Source: Nitrospirota bacterium (lineage in GTDB: Bacteria > Nitrospirota > Thermodesulfovibrionia > Thermodesulfovibrionales > SM23-35). From it: DNA of 64,000 nt. Position 1 is the first letter of the stretch. Each line of letters opens with the position of its first letter. The notes below the pieces were generated by a model that did not search any database, was not told where the DNA came from, and was given only the letters and a program-made list of their open reading frames with translations. Shown here one piece after another: positions 2,438 through 48,888 of this stretch. Made by a program: the position numbers and the translations under genes. The stretch is from NCBI GenBank assembly GCA_040753615.1, contig JBFMDO010000031.1, forward strand, positions 2,221-66,220, given 5' to 3'.

Positions 2438-2614
2438 TCATCTTCCCTTATTCACCATCCTGCTTACTGTTGAGTAATGTATCCCAAGATAGTCAGCAAC
2501 CTCTTTCTGGCTGTATCCATATCTCCCTACAGCCCTCTGTCCTTATACTGGACAGGCGGCTTTGCGTCACCCGGTTACACAGACTTTACCTTTTCGGTGG
2601 ATATGTTGATAAGT
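2438..2614 (-). pseudogene. Decayed C-terminal HTH remnant of a transposase-like (COG1943-type with DnaA-C-like HTH) gene
   Basis: Minus-strand frame reads TYQHIHRKGKVCVTG*RKAACPV*GQRAVGRYGYSQKEVADYLGIHYSTVSRMVNKGR*. The GYSQKEVADYLGIHYSTVSR part is a clear HTH. There are two in-frame stops and no N-terminal body. Confidence 0.4.
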
Positions 2615-2775: not shown

Positions 2776-5700
2776 ATGCGTATCGAAAAAATTGAGTTAA
2801 TAGGGTTCAAATCCTTTGCAGATAAAACCACTTTTAATTTTCATCCGGGCATTACCTGTATTGTGGGTCCAAACGGGTGCGGGAAGAGCAATGTTGTTGA
2901 TGCATTCCGCTGGGTTCTTGGTGAACAGAGTGCAAAGAGCCTCAGGGGTGAAAAGATGGAAGAGGTGATTTTCAACGGCTCTGCATCGAAAAAGCCAAAG
3001 GGCATGGCTGAGGTCACTCTGGCAATATCAGGGCTGAATGGCACCCAGCAGGCAAGGCAAGGTGAAAATGGGGAAGGCTCTTCAGATACTGCATTTGTTA
3101 CGAGAAGACTTTACAGGTCTGGAGACAGCGAATACATACTAAATAAAGATCAATGCAGGTTAAAGGATATAAAAGACATTTTCCTTGATACAGGACTGGA
3201 AGTAAAGAGCTATTCTGTGCTTGAACAGGATAGGATTGCCGAGATACTTAATTCAAAACCACAGGACAGAAGGTTTCTTATAGAGGAAGTAGCAGGGGTT
3301 ATGAAGTACAACTTCAGAAAAAAGGAGGCTATCTCAAAGCTCGAATCATCCAAGGCAAATCTTCAAAGGATAAACGATATAATCAGTGAAGTAAAAAAAC
3401 AGATCAACCTGCTCGATAGACTGGCAAAAAAGGCTGAAAGATACAAAAAGCTATCTTCTGAAATCCATTCTATAGAATTGAAGATTGCTAAAAGGGATTA
3501 TCTATCACTTAAGGAAGCGTATGACAAAATACTTGCAGAATATACCACCCTTAAAGAGGATGAATCTCTTAAAAAGGCAGAGCTTGCAGGTATAGAAAAC
3601 TACATAGAGACAAAGAGACTTGAACTCCTCGAAAAAGAAAAGACATTAGAAAATATCCAGACAAAATTCCAAGATGTAGAGAAAGATATTTCCGAACTCG
3701 AAAAGCTTATAGCAATAGCGCGGACAGAACGGGATAACAATAGAGAGTATCTTGCAAAGCTCTATGAGCAGAAGGAAGAACTCAACCTCAAAGAGGAAAA
3801 GGCATCTCTTAAACAAAAAGACCTCGAAAAAACCGAAACTGATATTTCATCAGAAATAGAAAGGCAGAAGGAATTCCTTGCAGATAAAGCTGGTTTTGTA
3901 AGGTCTCTGGAGGAAGAACTCGCAGATGATGAAGAATCACTTGAAGCAAAGAGGCGCGAGATATTCAAGATATCTGAGGATATTAGCAACCGTAGGAATG
4001 ATTATAACAGCCTAAAGACATCTCTTGAAGGACTGAAACAAAGAGAAACATTATCTGTAAAAGATGCGGAGAGTCTGAAAGACATCCTATCTGATATAGA
4101 CTCCTCGCTGAAAGATTTGGAGTCAGCCCTTCTGGAAAAGAATAACAATCTTCTCATTCTTAAAGAAAAAAGGGAAGCTATTGCAAATGAGATTTCTGAA
4201 GATAAAGTCAAAATCGGAACCCTAAGAGAGAAAATATCAGGACTCAAAGAAGAACTTGCGTCTAATATATCACGCTTTGAATCTCTCAGAGAATTAATAT
4301 TTGATGAGTCAACAAAAGAAATACTTTCACAGGATTTGAATATTACTCTTATCGCATCAATTTCTGATGTAATAGAGATCGAGGCTAAGTACGAAAAGGC
4401 TGTGGAGAGCGCACTTTCAGAAAAGGCTAATTCATTTATTCTCCCTTCATACAATGATATAAAAAATGCTATATCAACGTTAAAAGAAAAAGAAACAGGT
4501 AGAACAGCACTGATACCCATTAGCCCGGTTAAAAATATTGTGGAAACAGATGTTCCTGAAGGCGTTATAGGGAGGGCATCGGATTTTATACGGACTAAAG
4601 AGGAGTTTTCTGATGTTTCAAGAAGTCTGTTTGGCAATATCTTCATAGTAAAGGATATGCAGACAGCCTTAAATCTTGTTCCCATGGGACATAACTCAGT
4701 TTTTGTGACCCTCGAAGGAGAGGTTATAGAACCATCAGGTGCGGTTATCGCAGGAGATGTAAGAGGGGTCTTCAGGAGAAAAAGAGAGATGAGGGAGCTT
4801 GAAAAAACCATTGAAAATAATAAGACCGTGATAGCCGATATGCAGGAAGAATTAAACTTAATCCTTCAGATGGCAGAAAAAAGGGAATTCGACCTTAAAG
4901 ATACTGAAACAGATATTGCAGATATTGAAAAATCGCTTTCTATTTTAAACCTGACATCCGAAAATCAGGTGGCAGAGCAAGAGCAGAAAAAGAGAAAACT
5001 TGCTTCTCTTTCAATAGAGAGAGAGCAGGTGATTAATGAGATAAAGTTAACAGAAAAACTAATTACTGAAAAAGAAGCCGAGATGCAATCAGCAGAGTCG
5101 AATAGGGAGGGACTTGAACAGGATACCTTATCCCTTCAGGAAAAAATTATGCAGAAAAGGTCGTGTCTTGAGAAATATAGGGCAGAGGTTACTGATATAA
5201 GACTCGAGATAACTTCTCTCAAGGAGAAGTTGGAATCTGTCAGAAAGGAAAGGGAAGCCCTTTTCAGAGACATGGCTAATAGTAATCAGAAAAGAGAATT
5301 TCTGTTAGCAGAAATTTTTTCAATAAATTCACGTATTGAAGAGAGAGAAAAAGAGATAAATATACATGAAGAAAAAATAAGGTCTGTGGTCTCTATCGCA
5401 GATGGATTAAAAAAAGAGATATCCGAAAGAAAAGAACTAATAGAAACTGAAAATCAGGAATTGCTATTATCTGAGCAGAATCTGAAGGGAATAAGAATCC
5501 AGATTGATTCTCTTTTTCAGAGGATATCCGAGCTCGATATCCACAAGACTGAACATAAAATGAGAATCGAGGGGTTGCATGAAAATATAATGCGGAACTA
5601 TGGCTCAGATATAGCTACTATAGAAGTGGAACCACTTTCTCCTGAAGACGAGGAAAGACTTTTTGAGCTTAAGAAAAAGATACAGGATCTCGGGACTGTA

Positions 5701-6291
5701 AATCTCGGCACTTTAGAAGAATATGAAGAGCTGCGAACACGGTATGAATTTCTTACAGCACAACAGCAAGACCTGACTAAATCTATAGCAGAACTCGAAG
5801 AGGCTATTACAAAAATAAATTCTACAACCCGCAGGAAACTCAGGGAAGCATTTGATTTGCTCAATGCTAAATTTTCGGAAGTATTTATAAAATTATTTGG
5901 CGGCGGCAGGGCTGCACTCGTTATGACAGATGAAAATAACATCCTCGACACAGGCATTGAGATAATCGCACAGCCTCCCGGAAAAAAACTCCAGAACATA
6001 AACCTCCTTTCAGGCGGAGAAAAAACCCTTACTGCCTTATCTCTGCTTTTTGCAAGTTTCCTTATTAAACCAACACCGCTCTGTGTGCTGGATGAGGCAG
6101 ATTCTGCACTGGACGAAGCAAATACAGGAAAATTTGCACAAATGATTCGTGAATTTTCAAGGGATACTCAATTTATTGTGGTAACCCACAATAGAAACAC
6201 CATGAGCGTGGCTGACTATATATATGGAATAACCATGGAAGAGCCAGGGACTTCAAAGGTAATATCCATGCAGCTTATAGAAGCGCAATAG
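2776..6291 (+). CDS. smc: Chromosome segregation protein SMC
   Basis: 1171 aa. Walker A GPNGCGKSN at the N-terminus, long coiled coils, a hinge, signature LSGGEKTLTALSLLFA and Walker B LCVLDEADSALD at the C-terminus. Confidence 0.95.
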   Translation: MRIEKIELIGFKSFADKTTFNFHPGITCIVGPNGCGKSNVVDAFRWVLGEQSAKSLRGEKMEEVIFNGSASKKPKGMAEVTLAISGLNGTQQARQGENGEGSSDTAFVTRRLYRSGDSEYILNKDQCRLKDIKDIFLDTGLEVKSYSVLEQDRIAEILNSKPQDRRFLIEEVAGVMKYNFRKKEAISKLESSKANLQRINDIISEVKKQINLLDRLAKKAERYKKLSSEIHSIELKIAKRDYLSLKEAYDKILAEYTTLKEDESLKKAELAGIENYIETKRLELLEKEKTLENIQTKFQDVEKDISELEKLIAIARTERDNNREYLAKLYEQKEELNLKEEKASLKQKDLEKTETDISSEIERQKEFLADKAGFVRSLEEELADDEESLEAKRREIFKISEDISNRRNDYNSLKTSLEGLKQRETLSVKDAESLKDILSDIDSSLKDLESALLEKNNNLLILKEKREAIANEISEDKVKIGTLREKISGLKEELASNISRFESLRELIFDESTKEILSQDLNITLIASISDVIEIEAKYEKAVESALSEKANSFILPSYNDIKNAISTLKEKETGRTALIPISPVKNIVETDVPEGVIGRASDFIRTKEEFSDVSRSLFGNIFIVKDMQTALNLVPMGHNSVFVTLEGEVIEPSGAVIAGDVRGVFRRKREMRELEKTIENNKTVIADMQEELNLILQMAEKREFDLKDTETDIADIEKSLSILNLTSENQVAEQEQKKRKLASLSIEREQVINEIKLTEKLITEKEAEMQSAESNREGLEQDTLSLQEKIMQKRSCLEKYRAEVTDIRLEITSLKEKLESVRKEREALFRDMANSNQKREFLLAEIFSINSRIEEREKEINIHEEKIRSVVSIADGLKKEISERKELIETENQELLLSEQNLKGIRIQIDSLFQRISELDIHKTEHKMRIEGLHENIMRNYGSDIATIEVEPLSPEDEERLFELKKKIQDLGTVNLGTLEEYEELRTRYEFLTAQQQDLTKSIAELEEAITKINSTTRRKLREAFDLLNAKFSEVFIKLFGGGRAALVMTDENNILDTGIEIIAQPPGKKLQNINLLSGGEKTLTALSLLFASFLIKPTPLCVLDEADSALDEANTGKFAQMIREFSRDTQFIVVTHNRNTMSVADYIYGITMEEPGTSKVISMQLIEAQ

Positions 6292-6383
6292 GATTCAAGG
6301 GGGCAAGGAGTCAAGCGAACAAGGGGGTAAAACTTAGAAAAATAAACACTTGAACCCTCGAATTCTTGAATCCTCGAACCCTC
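6291..6383. repeat. Imperfect inverted repeat built from GGNTTCAAG/TTCGAGG words, directly after the smc stop
   Basis: Left arm GGATTCAAGGGGGCAAGGAGTCAAGCGAACAAGGGGG. Right arm CTTGAACCCTCGAATTCTTGAATCCTCGAACCCTC. GGATTCAAG pairs with CTTGAATCC. The same word family occurs inside purL at 41758-41840. Confidence 0.5.
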
Positions 6384-26902: not shown

Positions 26903-27977
26903 AATATCCATTGGCACACGAGGCAGCAAGCTCGCCCTCTGGCAGGCTGAGTGGGTCAAATCTGAATTAAAAAAACTTCACCCTGATCTCGGGGTTGAAA
27001 TCATTAAGATTAAGACGACAGGGGATAAGATATTGGATGTTCCCCTCGCAAAAGTTGGTGGCAAAGGACTCTTTGTTAAAGAAATTGAAGAAGCACTTTT
27101 AAGGCATGAAGTTGACATCGCAGTCCACAGCATGAAAGATGTGCCGACAGAATTTCCAGAAGGGCTTTGCTTGCCGGTAATATGTAAAAGGGAGGACCCG
27201 AGGGATGCCTTAATAATATCCCACAAGTCAAATCCCCCCCTACCCCCCTTTTCTAAAGGGGGGCGAGGGGAGATTTATGACTCTTCAAAACGACATCTTC
27301 AATCTTTATTGTTTAGTTTGCCCAGAGGTGTAGCGATAGGAACAAGCAGTCTTAGACGCTCATGTCAACTGCTCAATATCAGACCTGATTTGAGAATTAA
27401 ACAATTAAGGGGCAATCTTGATACCAGGCTAAGAAAACTTGATGAGGGTCAGTTTTATGCAATAATCGTAGCTTCTGCTGGTCTTAAGAGACTCGGTTTG
27501 GAGGGGAGGATTGCAGAGCTATTGCCTTTTGAGATAAGTCTTCCTGCAATTGGTCAGGGAGCAATAGGCATTGAATGCAGAATTGATGATAAATATACAA
27601 CTAATCTTATTGCAACGTTAAATCATCCTGAAACAGCTATATGCGTCAAAGCAGAGAGGGCATTTTTGAAAAAACTAGAAGGAGGTTGTCAGGTTCCAAT
27701 AGCTGCATATGCAAGATTAGTTAGTCAGGACTCACCCCCCCATCCTATCCTCGGTAAGGGGGGGCATAGGGGTGGTGTTAACTCCGAATTCCGAGAACCA
27801 AACTATAAACTCGTCATGGATGGTCTTGTTGGAAATATTGAGGGAGACAGGATTATAAAGGGCCACTTTGAAGGCAGTCCTGAACAGGCAGAAGACCTGG
27901 GTATCATACTTGCAGAGGATGTCCTTACAAAAGGTGCAAAAGAGATACTGAATGATATATATGGCAGGGAAGGTTAG
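26889..27977 (+). CDS. hemC: Porphobilinogen deaminase (hydroxymethylbilane synthase), carrying two in-frame repeat insertions
   Basis: [31 protein letters not shown] and CQVPIAAYA motifs. Start set at ATG 26889 (GGAG RBS). About 50 residues longer than typical HemC because of the insertions at 27231-27276 and 27733-27795. Confidence 0.9.
27231..27276. repeat. G/C-run palindromic element, subfamily A, in-frame in hemC
   Basis: AATCCCCCCCTACCCCCCTTTTCTAAAGGGGGGCGAGGGGAGATTT. The C-runs pair with the G-runs. Encodes [15 protein letters not shown]. Confidence 0.85.
27733..27795. repeat. G/C-run palindromic element, subfamily B, plus a CTCCGAA-type tail, in-frame in hemC
   Basis: CACCCCCCCATCCTATCCTCGGTAAGGGGGGGCATAGGGGTGGTGTTAAC followed by CTCCGAATTCCGAG. 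Encodes [22 protein letters not shown]. Near-identical to the purL element at 39331-39377. Confidence 0.85.
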
Positions 27978-28762: not shown

Positions 28763-30636
<1,874 letters not shown>

Positions 30637-38112: not shown

Positions 38113-41100
38113 TTAAGCAGAATCACACCACTTCTTCGCATTCTGAAACATCTTTAACCAGGGGGATGCTTTGAGGGTTTTTTTCCAGTCCTCTGGCATG
38201 TAAGCCCATTGCCATTTAAGAAAAGTCCTTTCTGGATGGGGCATCATTGCGAGGTGTCTGCCATCAGGTGAACAGAGTGCTGTTATCCCAGAAGGCGAGC
38301 CATTTGGATTGAAAGGATAGGTCTCGGTGAATTCGCCATTATCATCAACAAATCTAACAGGTGCAAGGTCTTTCCCTATAACTTCTTCCTGTATTTTATT
38401 GTCTGGGAAATAAAGCCTTCCCTCTCCATGGGCAATCCATACACCCAATGTAGAGCCTTCCATTCCTTTCAACATTATGGCAGGGCTTGGCAGGATGTGG
38501 ACTGTCGAAAATCTTGATTCAAACCTGCCTGATTTATTATGTATAAATCTTGGTTGCGTATTATCAGGGATTCCTTTCCACGGAATCCAGCCAATAAGTG
38601 CCATAAGCTGGCAGCCATTACATATCCCAAGGCTGAATGTATCAGGTCTTTCATAAAACCTATTGAACTGTTCATAAAGTCTCATGTTAAACCTTATTGT
38701 TCCTGCCCATCCCTTTGCCGAGTCAAGCACATCCGCATAACTAAATCCGCCTATAAAGGCAATACCTCTAAAATCGTCGAGTGTTATTTTATTTTTGAGT
38801 AGATCAGACATTGTTATATCCCAAACTTCAAAACCTGCGTGATAAAAGGCAGATGCCATCTCACGATCACCATTGCTGCCTTCTTCACGGATAATGGCTA
38901 CTTTAGGTTTGATATCAGTTAATCCCCCCAGCCCCCCTTTATAAAAGGGGGGTGAGGGGGGATTTTTATCAAAGGGGGATTCGAGGGGATTTTCAGGGGT
39001 AAATGTTAAGACATATTCAGGTCCTTTTCTGTCAAGATTTACCTTTCGTTCCTCCTCAACACACTCAGGATTAGCCTGCAGCTTATCAAGATGATAGCTC
39101 GTATCCTCCCAGATAGCCCTCAATAACCGCATATCCTCATCCAGAACAGATTCGGTTGAGATTTCAGATTTGAGACTTATTCTTATTCTCGGTTCTGACA
39201 GTGTCTTGCCTATTACCTGATAAGGAACTTCGTGCTCTTTCAATATAGATATTATTTCTTCTTCATTTTCAGCTAAATACTCAATTACCAGCCCAAGTTC
39301 TTCTGAGAATAGAAGAGAAAGTGAAGGATTAACACCCCCCCTTCTCCCCCCCTTGGCAAGGGAGGGATGGGGGGGTAATTCTAAATTAATTTCCATCCCG
39401 CAATTTCCCCCAAATGCCATTTCAAGGAGTGTTGTTATCAATCCTCCATCACTTCTGTCATGCCCTGAGAGGATCATATCTTTTTCTATTAAATGCTGGA
39501 CTGCATTAAATGCATTTTTTAATAATTGGGGATTATTTACATCAGGAGATTCATCACCAATCTGTCCATACACATGGGCTAATGCAGTGCCACCCATTCT
39601 GTATTTTCCATTACCGAGATCAATATAAAGCAACCTGCTTTCACCAGGCATTTTTATATCGGGTGTTATAATCTTTGTAATATCAGGGCAAGTTACATAT
39701 GCAGAGATAACCAGACTTCCTGGCGACTTGACCATCTCTGTCCTGCCTGATAAACCATACACCTTTGCAGCCATTGAAAGGCTGTCCTTGCCACCGTCAA
39801 TCGCGATGCCCAGATCTACCATAATATCTCTTAGTGCTAATGCAGCATCATAAATCCTTGCGCCTTCACCCGGAAGTTTTGCTGCCCACATCCAGTTTCC
39901 TGAGCACTTGATATCCTCAAGTGCACTAACTTTTGCCCAAACAATATTGGTGAGCGCCTCTCCAACACTCATTCGAGCCATTGCCTGTGGACTTATCAAA
40001 CCTTTTATTGGTTGCTCTCCGATTGATATGGCTGCACCTGTCAACCCAAAATGGCTTTGACTTACAACTGCCACATTTGATAAGGTGAGATGGAGCGGTC
40101 CAACGCATTGCTGTTGAGCAATGAGACCGGTAACAGACCTATCAACCTTATTTGTAAGGAATCTTTTTGAGCCCACAGAGACAAGACGCAGAACCCTTTC
40201 GAGGGCATTTTTTATTGTAATCCCCCCTTCTCCCCCCTTTAGCAAAGGGGGGTAGGGGGGGATTTTTAAGGGTTCAAGCCGGGGATTAATTCTCTCTAAA
40301 TTAAAGGTCTTTTGCGGCATCTCACCGAGAACCTTTGATAGATCAAGATTCACAGGTGTACTCCCGTCTATAGCGTCATGGAGAACAATATACCCATCTC
40401 CTGTTATCTCACCTATTACAGAGTACGGAGCCTTTTCTCTTTTGCATATGTCAATAAATATCTGGATTTTTTCAGATTTGATAAGAAGGGCATTATTTTC
40501 CTGATATTCAGCCCCCCATATCTCGAGGACTGAGAGGGTATTATCCCCGAGTTGGATATTTTTTATTTCTACCCTTGCGCCAGCAGGATAAATTATTTCC
40601 TTAACCACATTGCAGTTTCCTCCCGCTCCTTGATCATGTATGCTGACTAATGGATTATCATCTCCCATTTCTACACATGCCCTGATGACCCTGTTAACCT
40701 TTTGCTCCATCTCTGCATCACCGCGCTGTACAGCGCTGAAATCCAGTTCTTCTGTTAGCTCACCAGCTAAAACAGATGAGGCAGCGCCACCGCCAATTCC
40801 TATTCTGTATGCAGGGCCACCTATTTTAACCACGAGCATACCCTTCTGAGGTTCTGCTTTTTCAATATGTCTGCTGTCTATCTGGCCTACTCCGCCTGTA
40901 AACATAATGGGCTTAATCCATTCTCTTCTTTCACCGTCAGGCAATTTTAGTCCAAAAGACCTTGTAAATCCCTGTACCACAGGTTCCCCAAACTTGTTCC
41001 CATAGTCAGATGCACCATTGCTCGCCTCTATCTCTATCTGAAGAGGCGAAGCAAGATTTGATGGATATATGAATAACGGGTCTTCCCATGGTAAAAGATA

Positions 41101-42237
41101 GCCTGGTATCTGTAGATTTCCAACACAATATGCAGCAGTGCCAGCGATAACAAGACTTCCTTTTCCTGTTGCATGCACATCTCTTATTCTTCCTCCTGTG
41201 CCTGTTTCTGCTCCAGGGAATGGAGCCACTCCTGTTGGGAAATTGTGTGTTTCTGCTGTGAAGATGATGTGATAATTTAGTTTTGTATGTTTAAAGGGTG
41301 ATGGCTTGTCTGAATACTCGGGGATTATTGTCCGTATTTCATAGCCCTTGATTCCGCTTGAGTTGTCCTTAAAAGCAATAACACTATTACAGGGCTTAAC
41401 CTTTAAAGGATGTTTTACTATATCTATCAGTGTATGGGGCATTTCTTTTCCATCTATAATCAATCTTCCTTTAAAGAACCAGTGTCTTGAGTGCTCACTA
41501 TTTGATTGGGCAAGGTCAAAACACTCTACATTCGTTGGATTACGACCGATGTCTTTAACAAATAGGTTGTAATAATAATCTAAATCCCATTCATCGAACC
41601 CAAGCCCCATTTCAGTGTTTATTTTTTGTAATGCCTCTTTCCCATCTTCAATCAGTGGTACTATAAAAACAGGCTCTGGTTTTATCCCTATTTCAAATGT
41701 TGTGAGTGGTTCAGGATAGGGACATTCAGTCATCCGGTCATGAATGAGGGCAAGAAAGGGTTCAAGGGTTCGAGGAATCAAGGGTCCGAGTGATTCAAAG
41801 ATGCTCTCTTGATCCTTTGACCCCTTGAATCCTTGAATCCTTTCGTTAAACTGTAGTTTATATCTTCTCGATCTTTCTATCCGTGTAATCTTTCTAATGC
41901 CGCACGCATGGCATATAGATACTGCATTAGTTGACCATGCAGTTGTAAAATTCATTCGTGGACCAACCTCAAAAATAAATTTCGGAGTTCGGAGTTCGGA
42001 GTTCGGAGATAAAAAGCTTCCCTCTGAAAAATTCTCAGGCTCGAAAGTCTCTGCAAAAAGCCAGCGAAGAATATAAAGCTCATCTTCTGAAAGCAGTTCA
42101 CTCGTCTCAATGTTAAAGCAGAATTCTGCCTCTATATCTCTTATCTCGGGAGCAACCTTCTGCTGTACAAATGACAATAGCTCTTTTTTCTTTTCCAGTG
42201 AAAGTGCTGGCTTTCGATAAAAATGCAATAGATTCAT
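38113..42237 (-). CDS. purL: Phosphoribosylformylglycinamidine synthase, single-chain large PurL, carrying five in-frame repeat insertions
   Basis: 1374 aa. N-terminal PurS-like domain, duplicated AIR-synthase-like FGAM domains, and a C-terminal glutaminase (GICNGCQLM, HGEG). About 80 aa longer than the ~1295-aa E. coli-type enzyme. Confidence 0.95.
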   Translation of the reverse strand: MNLLHFYRKPALSLEKKKELLSFVQQKVAPEIRDIEAEFCFNIETSELLSEDELYILRWLFAETFEPENFSEGSFLSPNSELRTPKFIFEVGPRMNFTTAWSTNAVSICHACGIRKITRIERSRRYKLQFNERIQGFKGSKDQESIFESLGPLIPRTLEPFLALIHDRMTECPYPEPLTTFEIGIKPEPVFIVPLIEDGKEALQKINTEMGLGFDEWDLDYYYNLFVKDIGRNPTNVECFDLAQSNSEHSRHWFFKGRLIIDGKEMPHTLIDIVKHPLKVKPCNSVIAFKDNSSGIKGYEIRTIIPEYSDKPSPFKHTKLNYHIIFTAETHNFPTGVAPFPGAETGTGGRIRDVHATGKGSLVIAGTAAYCVGNLQIPGYLLPWEDPLFIYPSNLASPLQIEIEASNGASDYGNKFGEPVVQGFTRSFGLKLPDGERREWIKPIMFTGGVGQIDSRHIEKAEPQKGMLVVKIGGPAYRIGIGGGAASSVLAGELTEELDFSAVQRGDAEMEQKVNRVIRACVEMGDDNPLVSIHDQGAGGNCNVVKEIIYPAGARVEIKNIQLGDNTLSVLEIWGAEYQENNALLIKSEKIQIFIDICKREKAPYSVIGEITGDGYIVLHDAIDGSTPVNLDLSKVLGEMPQKTFNLERINPRLEPLKIPPYPPLLKGGEGGITIKNALERVLRLVSVGSKRFLTNKVDRSVTGLIAQQQCVGPLHLTLSNVAVVSQSHFGLTGAAISIGEQPIKGLISPQAMARMSVGEALTNIVWAKVSALEDIKCSGNWMWAAKLPGEGARIYDAALALRDIMVDLGIAIDGGKDSLSMAAKVYGLSGRTEMVKSPGSLVISAYVTCPDITKIITPDIKMPGESRLLYIDLGNGKYRMGGTALAHVYGQIGDESPDVNNPQLLKNAFNAVQHLIEKDMILSGHDRSDGGLITTLLEMAFGGNCGMEINLELPPHPSLAKGGRRGGVNPSLSLLFSEELGLVIEYLAENEEEIISILKEHEVPYQVIGKTLSEPRIRISLKSEISTESVLDEDMRLLRAIWEDTSYHLDKLQANPECVEEERKVNLDRKGPEYVLTFTPENPLESPFDKNPPSPPFYKGGLGGLTDIKPKVAIIREEGSNGDREMASAFYHAGFEVWDITMSDLLKNKITLDDFRGIAFIGGFSYADVLDSAKGWAGTIRFNMRLYEQFNRFYERPDTFSLGICNGCQLMALIGWIPWKGIPDNTQPRFIHNKSGRFESRFSTVHILPSPAIMLKGMEGSTLGVWIAHGEGRLYFPDNKIQEEVIGKDLAPVRFVDDNGEFTETYPFNPNGSPSGITALCSPDGRHLAMMPHPERTFLKWQWAYMPEDWKKTLKASPWLKMFQNAKKWCDSA
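38921..38999. repeat. G/C-run palindromic element, subfamily A, plus an adjacent GGATTCGAGG-word segment, in-frame in purL
   Basis: AATCCCCCCAGCCCCCCTTTATAAAAGGGGGGTGAGGGGGGATTT, then ...AAAGGGGGATTCGAGGGGATTTTCAGGGG. Gene-sense peptide: ENPLESPFDKNPPSPPFYKGGLGGLTD. Confidence 0.85.
39331..39377. repeat. G/C-run palindromic element, subfamily B, in-frame in purL
   Basis: AACACCCCCCCTTCTCCCCCCCTTGGCAAGGGAGGGATGGGGGGGTAA on the + strand. The gene-sense strand encodes LPPHPSLAKGGRRGGVN, which parallels the hemC 27733 element. Confidence 0.85.
40219..40284. repeat. G/C-run palindromic element, subfamily A, plus an adjacent GGGTTCAAG word, in-frame in purL
   Basis: AATCCCCCCTTCTCCCCCCTTTAGCAAAGGGGGGTAGGGGGGGATTT followed by TTAAGGGTTCAAGCCGGGG. 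Gene-sense peptide: RLEPLKIPPYPPLLKGGEGGITIK. Confidence 0.85.
41758..41840. repeat. Long imperfect inverted repeat of GGNTTCAAG/TTCGAGG words, in-frame in purL
   Basis: GGGTTCAAGGGTTCGAGGAATCAAGGGTCCGAG...GATCCTTTGACCCCTTGAATCCTTGAATCC. The arms are about 75 percent complementary by eye. Encodes ERIQGFKGSKDQESIFESLGPLIPRTLEP. Confidence 0.75.
41981..42008. repeat. Perfect heptanucleotide tandem repeat (TTCGGAG)x4 inside purL
   Basis: TTCGGAGTTCGGAGTTCGGAGTTCGGAG read directly from the sequence. Gene-sense (CTCCGAA)4 encodes SPNSELRTPK. Confidence 0.9.
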
Positions 42238-48790: not shown

Positions 48791-48888
48791 TGGCGGGAGC
48801 GTGTGGGAATCGAACCCACCCTGCCCGTTTGTAACAGGCAACACTGGATTTGAAGTCCAGGAGGGACACCAGAACCCTATACACTCCC
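48791..48888 (-). tRNA. selC: tRNA-Sec (anticodon UCA), CCA encoded
   Basis: Reverse complement is GGGAGTGTATAGGGTTCTGGTGTCCCTCCTGGACTTCAAATCCAGTGTTGCCTGTTACAAACGGGCAGGGTGGGTTCGATTCCCACACGCTCCCGCCA. It has an 8-bp acceptor stem (GGGAGTGT/ACGCTCCC with one G-U pair), a 5-bp T stem (GTGGG/CCCAC, loop TTCGATT), and an anticodon arm CTGGA-CTTCAAA-TCCAG. There is also a long 7-bp variable arm. The 8/5 geometry is the bacterial tRNA-Sec hallmark. Confidence 0.9.

Follow-up and report, generated by a model that had tools for sequence, protein, structure and literature searches.

The window, by which we mean the whole stretch of DNA analyzed, comprises 64,000 nucleotides (nt) of a Nitrospirota bacterium (GCA_040753615.1, contig JBFMDO010000031.1, positions 2,221 to 66,220 of the forward strand) with a G+C content of 39%, and our subject is a short palindrome made of C and G runs that is found five times in this window, three times in the gene purL and twice in hemC. 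purL is an essential gene of purine synthesis. The open reading frame (ORF) at 38113-42237 was assigned to PurL on the basis of its Pfam domains (FGAR-AT_N, linker, AIRS_C and GATase_5) and of full-length matches to solved structures, the best being human PFAS (9n9w), with Salmonella PurL (1t3t) also matched over its full length. The protein is 100% identical to an NCBI entry labelled 'MAG: Nitrospirota bacterium' (MAG, metagenome-assembled genome), and the next relatives are proteins from Thermodesulfovibrionales MAGs with 77% identity or less. The same PurL is present, with no differences, in two independent assemblies, i.e., the NCBI MAG and Logan. The gene and the elements considered are as follows:

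38113 to 42237, minus strand: purL, phosphoribosylformylglycinamidine synthase, 1374 amino acids (aa), from the ORF list, translation, Pfam and structure match
40219 to 40265, minus strand: site A, G/C-run palindrome of subtype A in purL, read as (K)IPPYPPLLKGGEGGI; hairpin of -33.8 kcal/mol, z = -3.7
39331 to 39377, minus strand: site B, subtype B (C7/G7 runs, partly decayed) in purL, read as LPPHPSLAKGGRRGGVN; hairpin of -36.4 kcal/mol, z = -3.0
38921 to 38965, minus strand: site C, subtype A in the purL linker before the glutaminase domain, read as NPPSPPFYKGGLGGL; hairpin of -33.6 kcal/mol, z = -4.4
38971 to 38993, minus strand: degenerate extra left arm directly upstream of the 38921 copy, sense AATCCCCTCGAATCCCCCTTT, read as NPLESPF, from sequence and translation
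27230 to 27276, plus strand: same family, subtype A, in hemC, read as a 15-residue peptide
27733 to 27780, plus strand: same family, subtype B, decayed, in hemC, read as a 17-residue peptide; fold z = -0.4

The three purL sequences at 38921-38965, 39331-39377 and 40219-40265 are present as quoted in the first-pass annotation of this DNA, and the peptides given there (KIPPYPPLLKGGEGGI, LPPHPSLAKGGRRGGV and NPPSPPFYKGGLGGL) are correct by translation. The two hemC copies, at 27230 and 27733, are likewise real, and their host is a Pfam-confirmed porphobilinogen deaminase, so that all five copies indeed lie inside ORFs (5/5 intragenic). Five copies are found in 64 kb, where none would be expected. 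The palindromes cannot be ascribed to chance, as the core CCCCCCTTTNNNAAAGGGGGG, allowing up to two mismatches, occurs three times in the window as compared with 0.00 in 100 dinucleotide shuffles, and as the runs of six or more C or G in the window concentrate at the five element places. Folding of the RNA hairpins, proposed earlier as a check, gave -31.5 to -36.4 kcal/mol (z = -3.0 to -4.6) for four of the five, none of 200 shuffles being as stable, while the hemC 27733 copy folded no better than its shuffles. At site A, the encoded peptide sits in the loop where human PFAS has LALPP-GLSV, and adds about 10 residues. The arm at 38971-38993 is probably the remnant of an older copy, in whose loop the present 38921 copy was inserted. 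Elsewhere in the window, at 29858-29879, two C6 runs lie 10 nt apart without a G-run partner, within an ORF at 29289-30029 (minus strand); on the coding strand these form a GGG..GGG motif which, by inspection only, looks like a native glycine-rich loop and not like the element.

The anatomy of the element was derived from 139 copies taken from all collections searched, among the matches listed, and this scope applies to all copy counts from the wider collections given below. The unit is about 45 nt long and has the consensus (A/T)AAT-C6, a 2-4-nt spacer, C6TTT, a 3-nt loop, AAAG6, a second 2-4-nt spacer and G6-ATT(T/A), whereas the bases flanking the unit are random. It thus carries terminal inverted repeats, namely AAATC6-n-C6TTT and AAAG6-n-G6ATTT. 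The two spacers are mostly non-complementary (TCA with ATG is a frequent pair), which leaves an internal loop in the hairpin and gives the element a polarity. There are at least two subtypes: A, with C6/G6 runs, and B, with C7/G7 runs and the ends (T)CAC7 ... G7TG. The near base-for-base match between the 39331 and 27733 copies, pointed out before, is accounted for by both belonging to subtype B, and they are nearly identical when read in gene sense. The element codons are CCC and GGG, while conserved Pro and Gly residues elsewhere in purL are encoded by CCT, CCA, GGT and GGA. These atypical codons, together with the number of copies in the window relative to expectation, identify the copies as repeated DNA and not as protein motifs.

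The first-pass annotation also stated that the copies are all read in the same peptide frame. This applies to four of the five window copies, which use the register AAT CCC CCC, but not to the 40219 copy, which is shifted by one base (A ATC CCC CCC). Every window copy leaves two of its three sense frames open, and 3.7-4.5 of the six frames are open in 129 metagenome copies. As the unit consists of C runs, G runs and A/T triplets, its poverty in stop codons is largely built in, and stops can arise only from the loop and the spacers. This should be considered when referring to the further claim that insertions had been selected for being translatable: the open frames as such are not evidence of design, and it is the fate of the copies in genes, discussed below, that speaks for selection.

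To see the elements as insertions, one has to consider the native enzyme. When aligned with human PFAS 9n9w, the insert at site A stands opposite a gap of 10 residues, the site-B insert faces a 12-13-residue gap in both human and Salmonella PurL, and site C corresponds to a linker before the glutaminase domain that is variable in solved structures and that in orthologs without the insert consists of the nine residues EKTPQKILE. Judging from these alignments, in which the inserts fall at gaps or variable linkers, the elements are not conserved parts of PurL. The net gain relative to human PFAS is about 30 residues, of which sites A, B and C contribute about 10, 13 and 8, respectively. The excess of about 79 aa over the E. 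coli-type enzyme of about 1295 aa, to which attention had been drawn, is therefore explained only in part by the three elements, with some of the remainder being due to at least two further families of repeats in the N-terminal portion of the protein.

Presence and absence among relatives, which had been suggested for comparison, was followed over 120 close PurL orthologs from Thermodesulfovibrionales, and such variation is indeed seen, with copies appearing and disappearing at a few permissive places of PurL, namely loops and linkers between domains. Their lengths range from 1216 to 1423 aa (1314-1423 aa for near-full-length matches), and the variation is confined mostly to a few blocks. Five hot spots carry the Pro-Pro ... 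Lys-Gly-Gly element in 12-44 of the 120 orthologs each, which again speaks against the element being a conserved part of PurL; in the other orthologs these places are either empty or hold other repeats (SPPTHPSPSRGEGKGGGE, runs of the SLVTRH or LRTPNSE heptamers, or AGYRMQDKK). Site A is occupied in 12 of 120 orthologs, with the nearest relative being empty for 10 of the 12. At site B, other orthologs carry LPPHPPLTKGGRRGG-type inserts, and the remainder is filled by other repeat families. Between paired orthologs whose core columns are 93-97% identical, as many as five insert blocks can differ, and DNA alignments of two sister pairs reveal filled, differently filled and empty states, as well as nested copies. 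Three independent cases of nesting were found, namely ortholog P0026 at site C (in DNA), ortholog P0011 at site A, and 38921-38993 in the window, which suggests that hairpin tips are preferred as targets. Identity between sisters falls to 80-81% within 90 nt of the indels, as compared with 93-96% elsewhere, and a stretch of about 400 nt stands at 52-85%. Such low-identity stretches surround the inserts in L364/L365 (P0026 vs P0076, columns 2880-3300) and in L122/L123 (columns 180-540), even though the sister purL genes are 96% identical overall. These patches fit divergent DNA imported by recombination or, alternatively, merely fast-evolving linkers. Counting insertions by parsimony on a neighbour-joining tree was also attempted, but yielded about as many changes as shuffled states and was not used, a result that probably reflects a star-like, mosaic gene tree.

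The family extends far beyond this window. We found at least 120 loci with an 18-base core in the species-genome collection, at least 120 loci with the full element in JGI metagenomes, and at least 120 loci with the 18-base core in IMG/VR viral contigs, so that the window copies are by no means the only ones; by our own estimate (596e9 / 4^18), about 10 core matches would be expected by chance in 596 Gb. The outer arm, left out of the query, is present in 121 of 144 genome matches and in 119 of 145 core matches over 120 viral loci. Isolate hosts include Chromatium okenii, Thiorhodococcus, Thiospirillum, Lysobacter, Luteimonas, Pelotalea and Geomesophilobacter, and the labels of MAGs include Nitrospirota, Nitrospinota, Desulfobacterota, Myxococcota, Alpha-, Beta- and Gammaproteobacteria, Acidobacteriota/Aminicenantes, Methylomirabilota, Chloroflexota, Planctomycetota, Elusimicrobiota, Ignavibacteria, Deinococcota, Binatia and others, the host labels thus covering more than a dozen phyla. 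In taxa other than Nitrospirota, the element mostly takes the form of a 'half' unit of about 33 nt, comprising the outer arm and one hairpin, often followed 10-30 nt on by a second, weaker hairpin and the opposite outer arm, which together form a composite palindrome of 70-130 nt. The element occurs both singly and as inverted pairs 40-130 nt apart, and the 45-nt form of the window looks like a collapsed, minimal version of the composite. The element is not described in the open-access literature that we searched by sequence and by topic, although absence there is no proof of novelty. Similarly, Rfam holds no family that reaches its gathering score on the window copies or on eight composite loci, the only matches being generic hairpins with E values of 0.24 or more.

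The genomic context differs with base composition. In metagenome contigs with less than 46% GC, long ORFs contain 26 of 45 copies, with 13 lying between genes, whereas in contigs with 52% GC or more only 5 of 47 are genic and 32 are intergenic. The family is thus wider than was seen at first, spanning many phyla and being mostly intergenic outside this lineage. In low-GC contigs of the Nitrospirota type, a single frame runs through 28 of 60 copies and extends for 60 aa or more both before and after the element, and only two copies separate unjoined ORFs, both of which look like gene junctions. As 28 copies are read through and only two are not, a filter by selection becomes visible; this supports the claim on translatable insertions, and random disruption of genes is not what is seen. 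The host genes at these loci encode LeuRS, RecJ, MurD, HisF, CarA, MetH, FabF (two copies), TsaD and Der, as well as RibD, SMC, TatD, RtcA and radical-SAM proteins, often with inserts of other repeat families alongside. In three viral contigs of IMG/VR (L258, L355 and L336), elements adjoin genes that, by reading of the ORF translations, are terminase-like and portal-like. As viral contigs carry elements, phages are a possible vehicle for the spread across phyla.

Taken together, we favor the explanation, with a probability of roughly 0.7, that the copies are a selfish, non-autonomous mobile hairpin repeat that selection has filtered into permissive loops. Copies would insert more or less blindly, with a preference for existing hairpin loops. 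Due to the C runs, G runs and A/T triplets, most frames would be left free of stops and, the unit being a palindrome, either orientation would yield Pro-Pro ... Lys-Gly-Gly. Selection would then remove copies that break the frame or that fall into structured parts, and the survivors would be translated as short, flexible Pro/Gly loops tolerated by the enzyme. Turnover at the hot spots would also proceed via replacement by other repeat families and, probably, via recombinational exchange of short gene patches.

This explanation has several weak points that need to be considered. The genome-wide census rests on fragments and on no complete genome, and it is only from open frames that translation of the inserts is predicted. 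Between filled and empty alleles, the difference is a net +7 to +10 codons and not +15, meaning that part of the native sequence was replaced and that no simple insertion is visible. Conservation of the site-A copy far exceeds that expected of neutral DNA and is not foreseen by a reading of the copies as mere junk. Neither a transposase nor any other gene family recurs beside the copies in the 120 genome loci listed, and no autonomous insertion sequence (IS) was found in any of the loci between paired ends that lie 0.4-4.5 kb apart. No clean target-site duplication was found either: a CWG 3-nt direct repeat flanks 14 of 85 copies in contigs with 46% GC or more (about 3 expected), but the signal is confined to one boundary and 11 of the 14 copies share long homologous flanks, such that these 11 may descend from one event, while 3-nt direct repeats flank none of 51 composites and only 1 of 54 low-GC copies.

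With regard to a mobilizing enzyme, an all-versus-all BLAST of 4920 ORFs returned only generic families as recurrent (SDR, PlsY, HypB/UreG and TPR proteins), and the intervals between paired ends hold only unrelated host or phage genes, including terminase-like and portal-like genes. An IS1595-like transposase in L063 was rejected, as it lies about 1.2 kb from the copy and is a single occurrence. In L041 (3340-3790), a frameshifted gene for DUF559, a Vsr-like endonuclease, lies between two inverted half elements, this being the sole such case in the 120 loci listed; as a mobilizer, DUF559 was discarded, since phmmer found no other DUF559 gene in these loci. Eleven full elements flanked by CTG...CTG (L129, L148, L175, L179, L181, L188, L207, L210 with two copies, L224 and L234) share a larger context, with ...TCTTTAAATTTTGTAAAGAA...GGAAAC... 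upstream and GAAGGC...GGTTGCGGCTCTGCCGCGCTGTG downstream, which may represent a larger repeat or else a non-coding, conserved locus that hosts the hairpin.

The site-A copy deserves separate consideration. Among orthologs that are about 80% identical in protein, it is the most conserved 45 nt of purL, with a pairwise nt identity of 0.91, or 0.96 when one decayed copy is left out, as compared with a mean of 0.77 and a maximum of 0.91 over 1162 other 15-codon purL windows. Its third codon positions are 0.92 identical, versus 0.54 gene-wide and 0.41 at conserved Pro/Gly codons, these comparison codons being GGT, GGA and CCT instead of GGG and CCC. Stems, loop (GCT) and right spacer (AGAA) are all preserved, whereas the 150 nt around the copy are at background (third positions 0.56), and in one ortholog both outer arms show a possible paired change. 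A further site holds an A-type copy in two distant orthologs that are 74% identical in nt; the two copies are 94% identical to each other, and the sister of one of these orthologs, at 92% nt identity, has the B type in that place. Conservation of stems beyond that expected of synonymous positions was seen both at site A and at the N2 site. Nucleotide-level constraint on the hairpin, recurrent site-specific insertion and very short patch exchange are all possible explanations.

A far-reaching proposal, which we find rather doubtful, starts from one hairpin of about 33-45 nt being maintained across more than a dozen phyla and in viruses. Such a hairpin might be the substrate of a widely shared copying mechanism that targets hairpin loops or cruciforms, possibly with no element-encoded protein, and/or might function as a folded nucleic acid; there would then be hundreds of copies per Thermodesulfovibrionales genome in essential genes, held under a nucleotide-level constraint stricter than that on catalytic cores.

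The main rival reading, which is unlikely in our judgment, is that the hairpins, possibly mobile in origin, were exapted and kept by purifying selection for a nucleic-acid role, be it ribosome pausing by a strong stem and Pro-Pro codons at domain boundaries, mRNA stability or protein-bound DNA. The conservation at site A, where third positions are far above the gene-wide level and stems, loop and spacer are kept, argues for such a role, as does the possible paired change in the outer arms. The hot spot at site C lies at an inter-domain linker, and several other PurL hot spots presumably lie at or near domain junctions or linkers, going by the published domain boundaries of Salmonella PurL. Genic copies, moreover, favor one register (26 of 38, p = 1e-4 to 1e-5), although these counts may include orthologous and hence non-independent copies. 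The same argument was made for GC42 of yeast mitochondria, a 42-nt mobile cluster whose stems change below the synonymous rate, which was read as functional constraint (PMC4478555). However, a maintained function sits poorly with a site-A copy present in only 12 of 120 orthologs, 10 of them with an empty nearest relative, with the visible decay of the 39331 and 27733 copies, and with sites that are freely taken by unrelated repeat families; nor does any Rfam family match.

We consider it improbable that a classical system is at work, i.e., repetitive extragenic palindromes (REPs) or REPINs moved by a REP-associated tyrosine transposase (RAYT, IS200/IS605-like), or MITEs (miniature transposable elements with inverted repeats) moved in trans by a DDE transposase with a 3-bp CWG duplication. 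The size, the bulged imperfect hairpin and the occurrence as singlets and spaced inverted doublets do resemble REP/REPIN, the ends AAATC6 ... G6ATTT are conserved like terminal inverted repeats in the 139 copies, and the excess of CWG repeats (14 of 85) is what such a duplication would leave. Nonetheless, long homologous flanks are common to the CWG cases, genes for a Y1 or DDE transposase do not recur near the copies and no RAYT adjoins them in the 120 genome loci listed, the copies are intragenic in this lineage, and the ends lack the GTAG or CGTC tag of the two REP superfamilies (PMC3733652).

That the inserts are left untranslated, with ribosomes hopping over them as over the 'byp' elements of Magnusiomyces mitochondria or in T4 gene 60, strikes us as very improbable. 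Short GC-rich hairpins inside the genes of an AT-rich genome are byp-like, but byps are skipped by the ribosome while the copies here keep an open frame: the frame is kept and stops are absent in 28 of 30 copies, neither of which bypassing would need, and the window copies are not flanked by matching codons for take-off and landing. Our comparison with byps otherwise follows what Lang et al. reportedly described in 2014. Byps are also mentioned in 10.1101/2022.08.31.505936 and PMC8211752. The notion that these are ordinary Pro/Gly-rich linkers that arose in place, such loops being common in linkers, or an artefact of what is a metagenome assembly, is already contradicted by the palindromic DNA and the codons atypical for the gene, by the presence of the same DNA between genes and in unrelated phyla, isolate genomes included, and by the identical PurL in two independent assemblies.

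A selfish mobile repeat should also be compared with known systems. Rickettsia palindromic elements (RPEs) are palindromic repeats fused in frame into metabolic genes and are unusually frequent in Rickettsia (PMC10969869; Ogata et al. 2000 Science 290:347 and 2002 Genome Res 12:808, both as cited in PMC10969869). The likeness lies in palindromes found in frame in many unrelated housekeeping genes, with several families per genome, and RPEs are further characterized by added peptides judged compatible with the fold, by no known transposase and by being read as selfish DNA. RPE peptides have a surface location at a distance from active sites; the PurL inserts lie at gaps or variable linkers of solved structures, while an AlphaFold2 model of PurL residues 601-1374, built with 40 homologs, was too poor to be used (mean predicted local distance difference test score, pLDDT, of 51). 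In contrast to the 45 bp made of C6/G6 runs found here, RPEs are about 100-150 bp long (PMC10969869), their peptides are not Pro/Gly runs and there is no sequence relationship, the two being set apart by description without alignment to sequences of the ten RPE families. RPEs are, moreover, confined to Rickettsia ('unique' in the 2002 title), whereas the present family is found in genes of Nitrospirota, between genes in more than a dozen phyla, and in viral contigs.

By size, composition and behavior, we consider the closest analogue to be the palindromic GC cluster of mitochondria. Both are GC-rich hairpins (42 nt and 45 nt) in an AT-rich genome, with sporadic distribution, merging and nesting, homologous recombination, stems conserved above synonymous positions and no dedicated enzyme known. 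GC42 has an AG target (PMC4478555). GC clusters are, however, organellar and mostly intergenic while the host here is bacterial, and neither by host nor by sequence homology does the element belong with the yeast M-class clusters, the likeness lying in behavior only.

REP/REPIN elements share with the present family imperfect, bulged palindromes of 20-40 nt that occur as singlets or inverted doublets and are extragenic in most host taxa. The ends here are, however, (A/T)AAT ... ATT(T/A), without the GTAG/CGTC tag that serves as criterion in PMC3733652; all five window copies are intragenic, the extragenic feature fitting the high-GC taxa only; and the sequence is common to many phyla, while a REP is as a rule limited to one species. 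Fusion with ORFs is also known from bacterial MITEs (Coxiella QMITE1, Correia, ERIC and Anabaena MITEs; PMC10969869, PMC5896051); these likewise have terminal inverted repeats, are non-autonomous and show occasional in-frame fusions, but they usually exceed 100 bp and have a clear target duplication and a related IS, while here the unit is 45 bp, duplication is unproven and no parent IS was found. As each has defining features that the element lacks, it was not filed as RPE, REP/RAYT or MITE. PARCELs (PMC2996958) are also palindromic coding repeats with a patchy, horizontally spread distribution, but they are longer, are arranged in tandem in surface proteins and form amphipathic helices, rather than being dispersed as single inserts in enzymes.

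Palindromes within protein-coding sequence have been regarded as peculiar to Rickettsia, and they are still set apart in a 2024 review (PMC10969869). The family described here is an independent and much broader second instance of selfish DNA inside proteins, and not a new principle. A second family in free-living Nitrospirota, much shorter than the first and not related to it, would make the phenomenon a general one, and hundreds of natural 15-residue loop insertions in well-studied enzymes would map permissive sites. Such inserts lengthen proteins and interfere with alignments, domain calls and phylogenies drawn from metagenome-assembled genomes. Finally, the identity across phyla and the conservation above the synonymous level make it testable how enzyme-less hairpins multiply and whether they are selected as RNA or DNA structures.

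The same PurL carries two further repeats, both in its N-terminal part:

41750 to 41840, minus strand: long palindrome whose units are about 8 nt each, (GGATTCAA)n ... (TTGAACCC)n, in purL, read as IQGFKGSKDQESIFESLGPLIPRTLEPF
41981 to 42003, minus strand: tandem heptamer (CCGAACT) of about 3.5 units in purL, at a hypervariable site, read as SPNSELRTP

In frame, the palindrome at 41750-41840 gives IQGFKGSK...SLGPLIPRTLEPF; a second copy lies at about 6291-6380 (plus strand), at the end of or just after the ORF at 2776-6291. At this purL site, some orthologs carry GGGGTCAA/CCCTCGAA versions and others G/C-run elements. The CCGAACT / AACTCCGAA heptamers are also found at 27780-27790 in hemC, just after the B-type element. 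The 41981-42003 site is filled in orthologs by G/C-run elements, by other heptamer runs or by other palindromes; one such filling is runs of the heptamer ACTCATC (encoding SLVTRH), which recur in MurD, CarA and RecJ of related contigs. More repeat peptides are read in frame in orthologs P0010, P0016, P0029, P0050, P0053 and others and in L152 and L163, namely SPPTHPSPSRGEGKGGGE, AGYRMQDKK/NAECRM and VIASEAKQS...CEERSDEAIS. The proteomes of this lineage appear to be peppered with several unrelated repeat families.

Upstream of purL, L122 (4809-6929) and L123 (2077-8418) differ although their PurL proteins are 94% identical, and these regions contain restriction-modification, Fic, PemK and DUF559-fusion genes. 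As the two regions differ and carry such genes, a variable defence island adjoining purB and purL appears likely. Elsewhere, the window contains a tRNA-Sec gene at 48795-48888 (minus strand, 73 bits) and a c-di-GMP-I riboswitch at 2525-2600 (minus strand), which scores 36.5 bits against a gathering score of 35.

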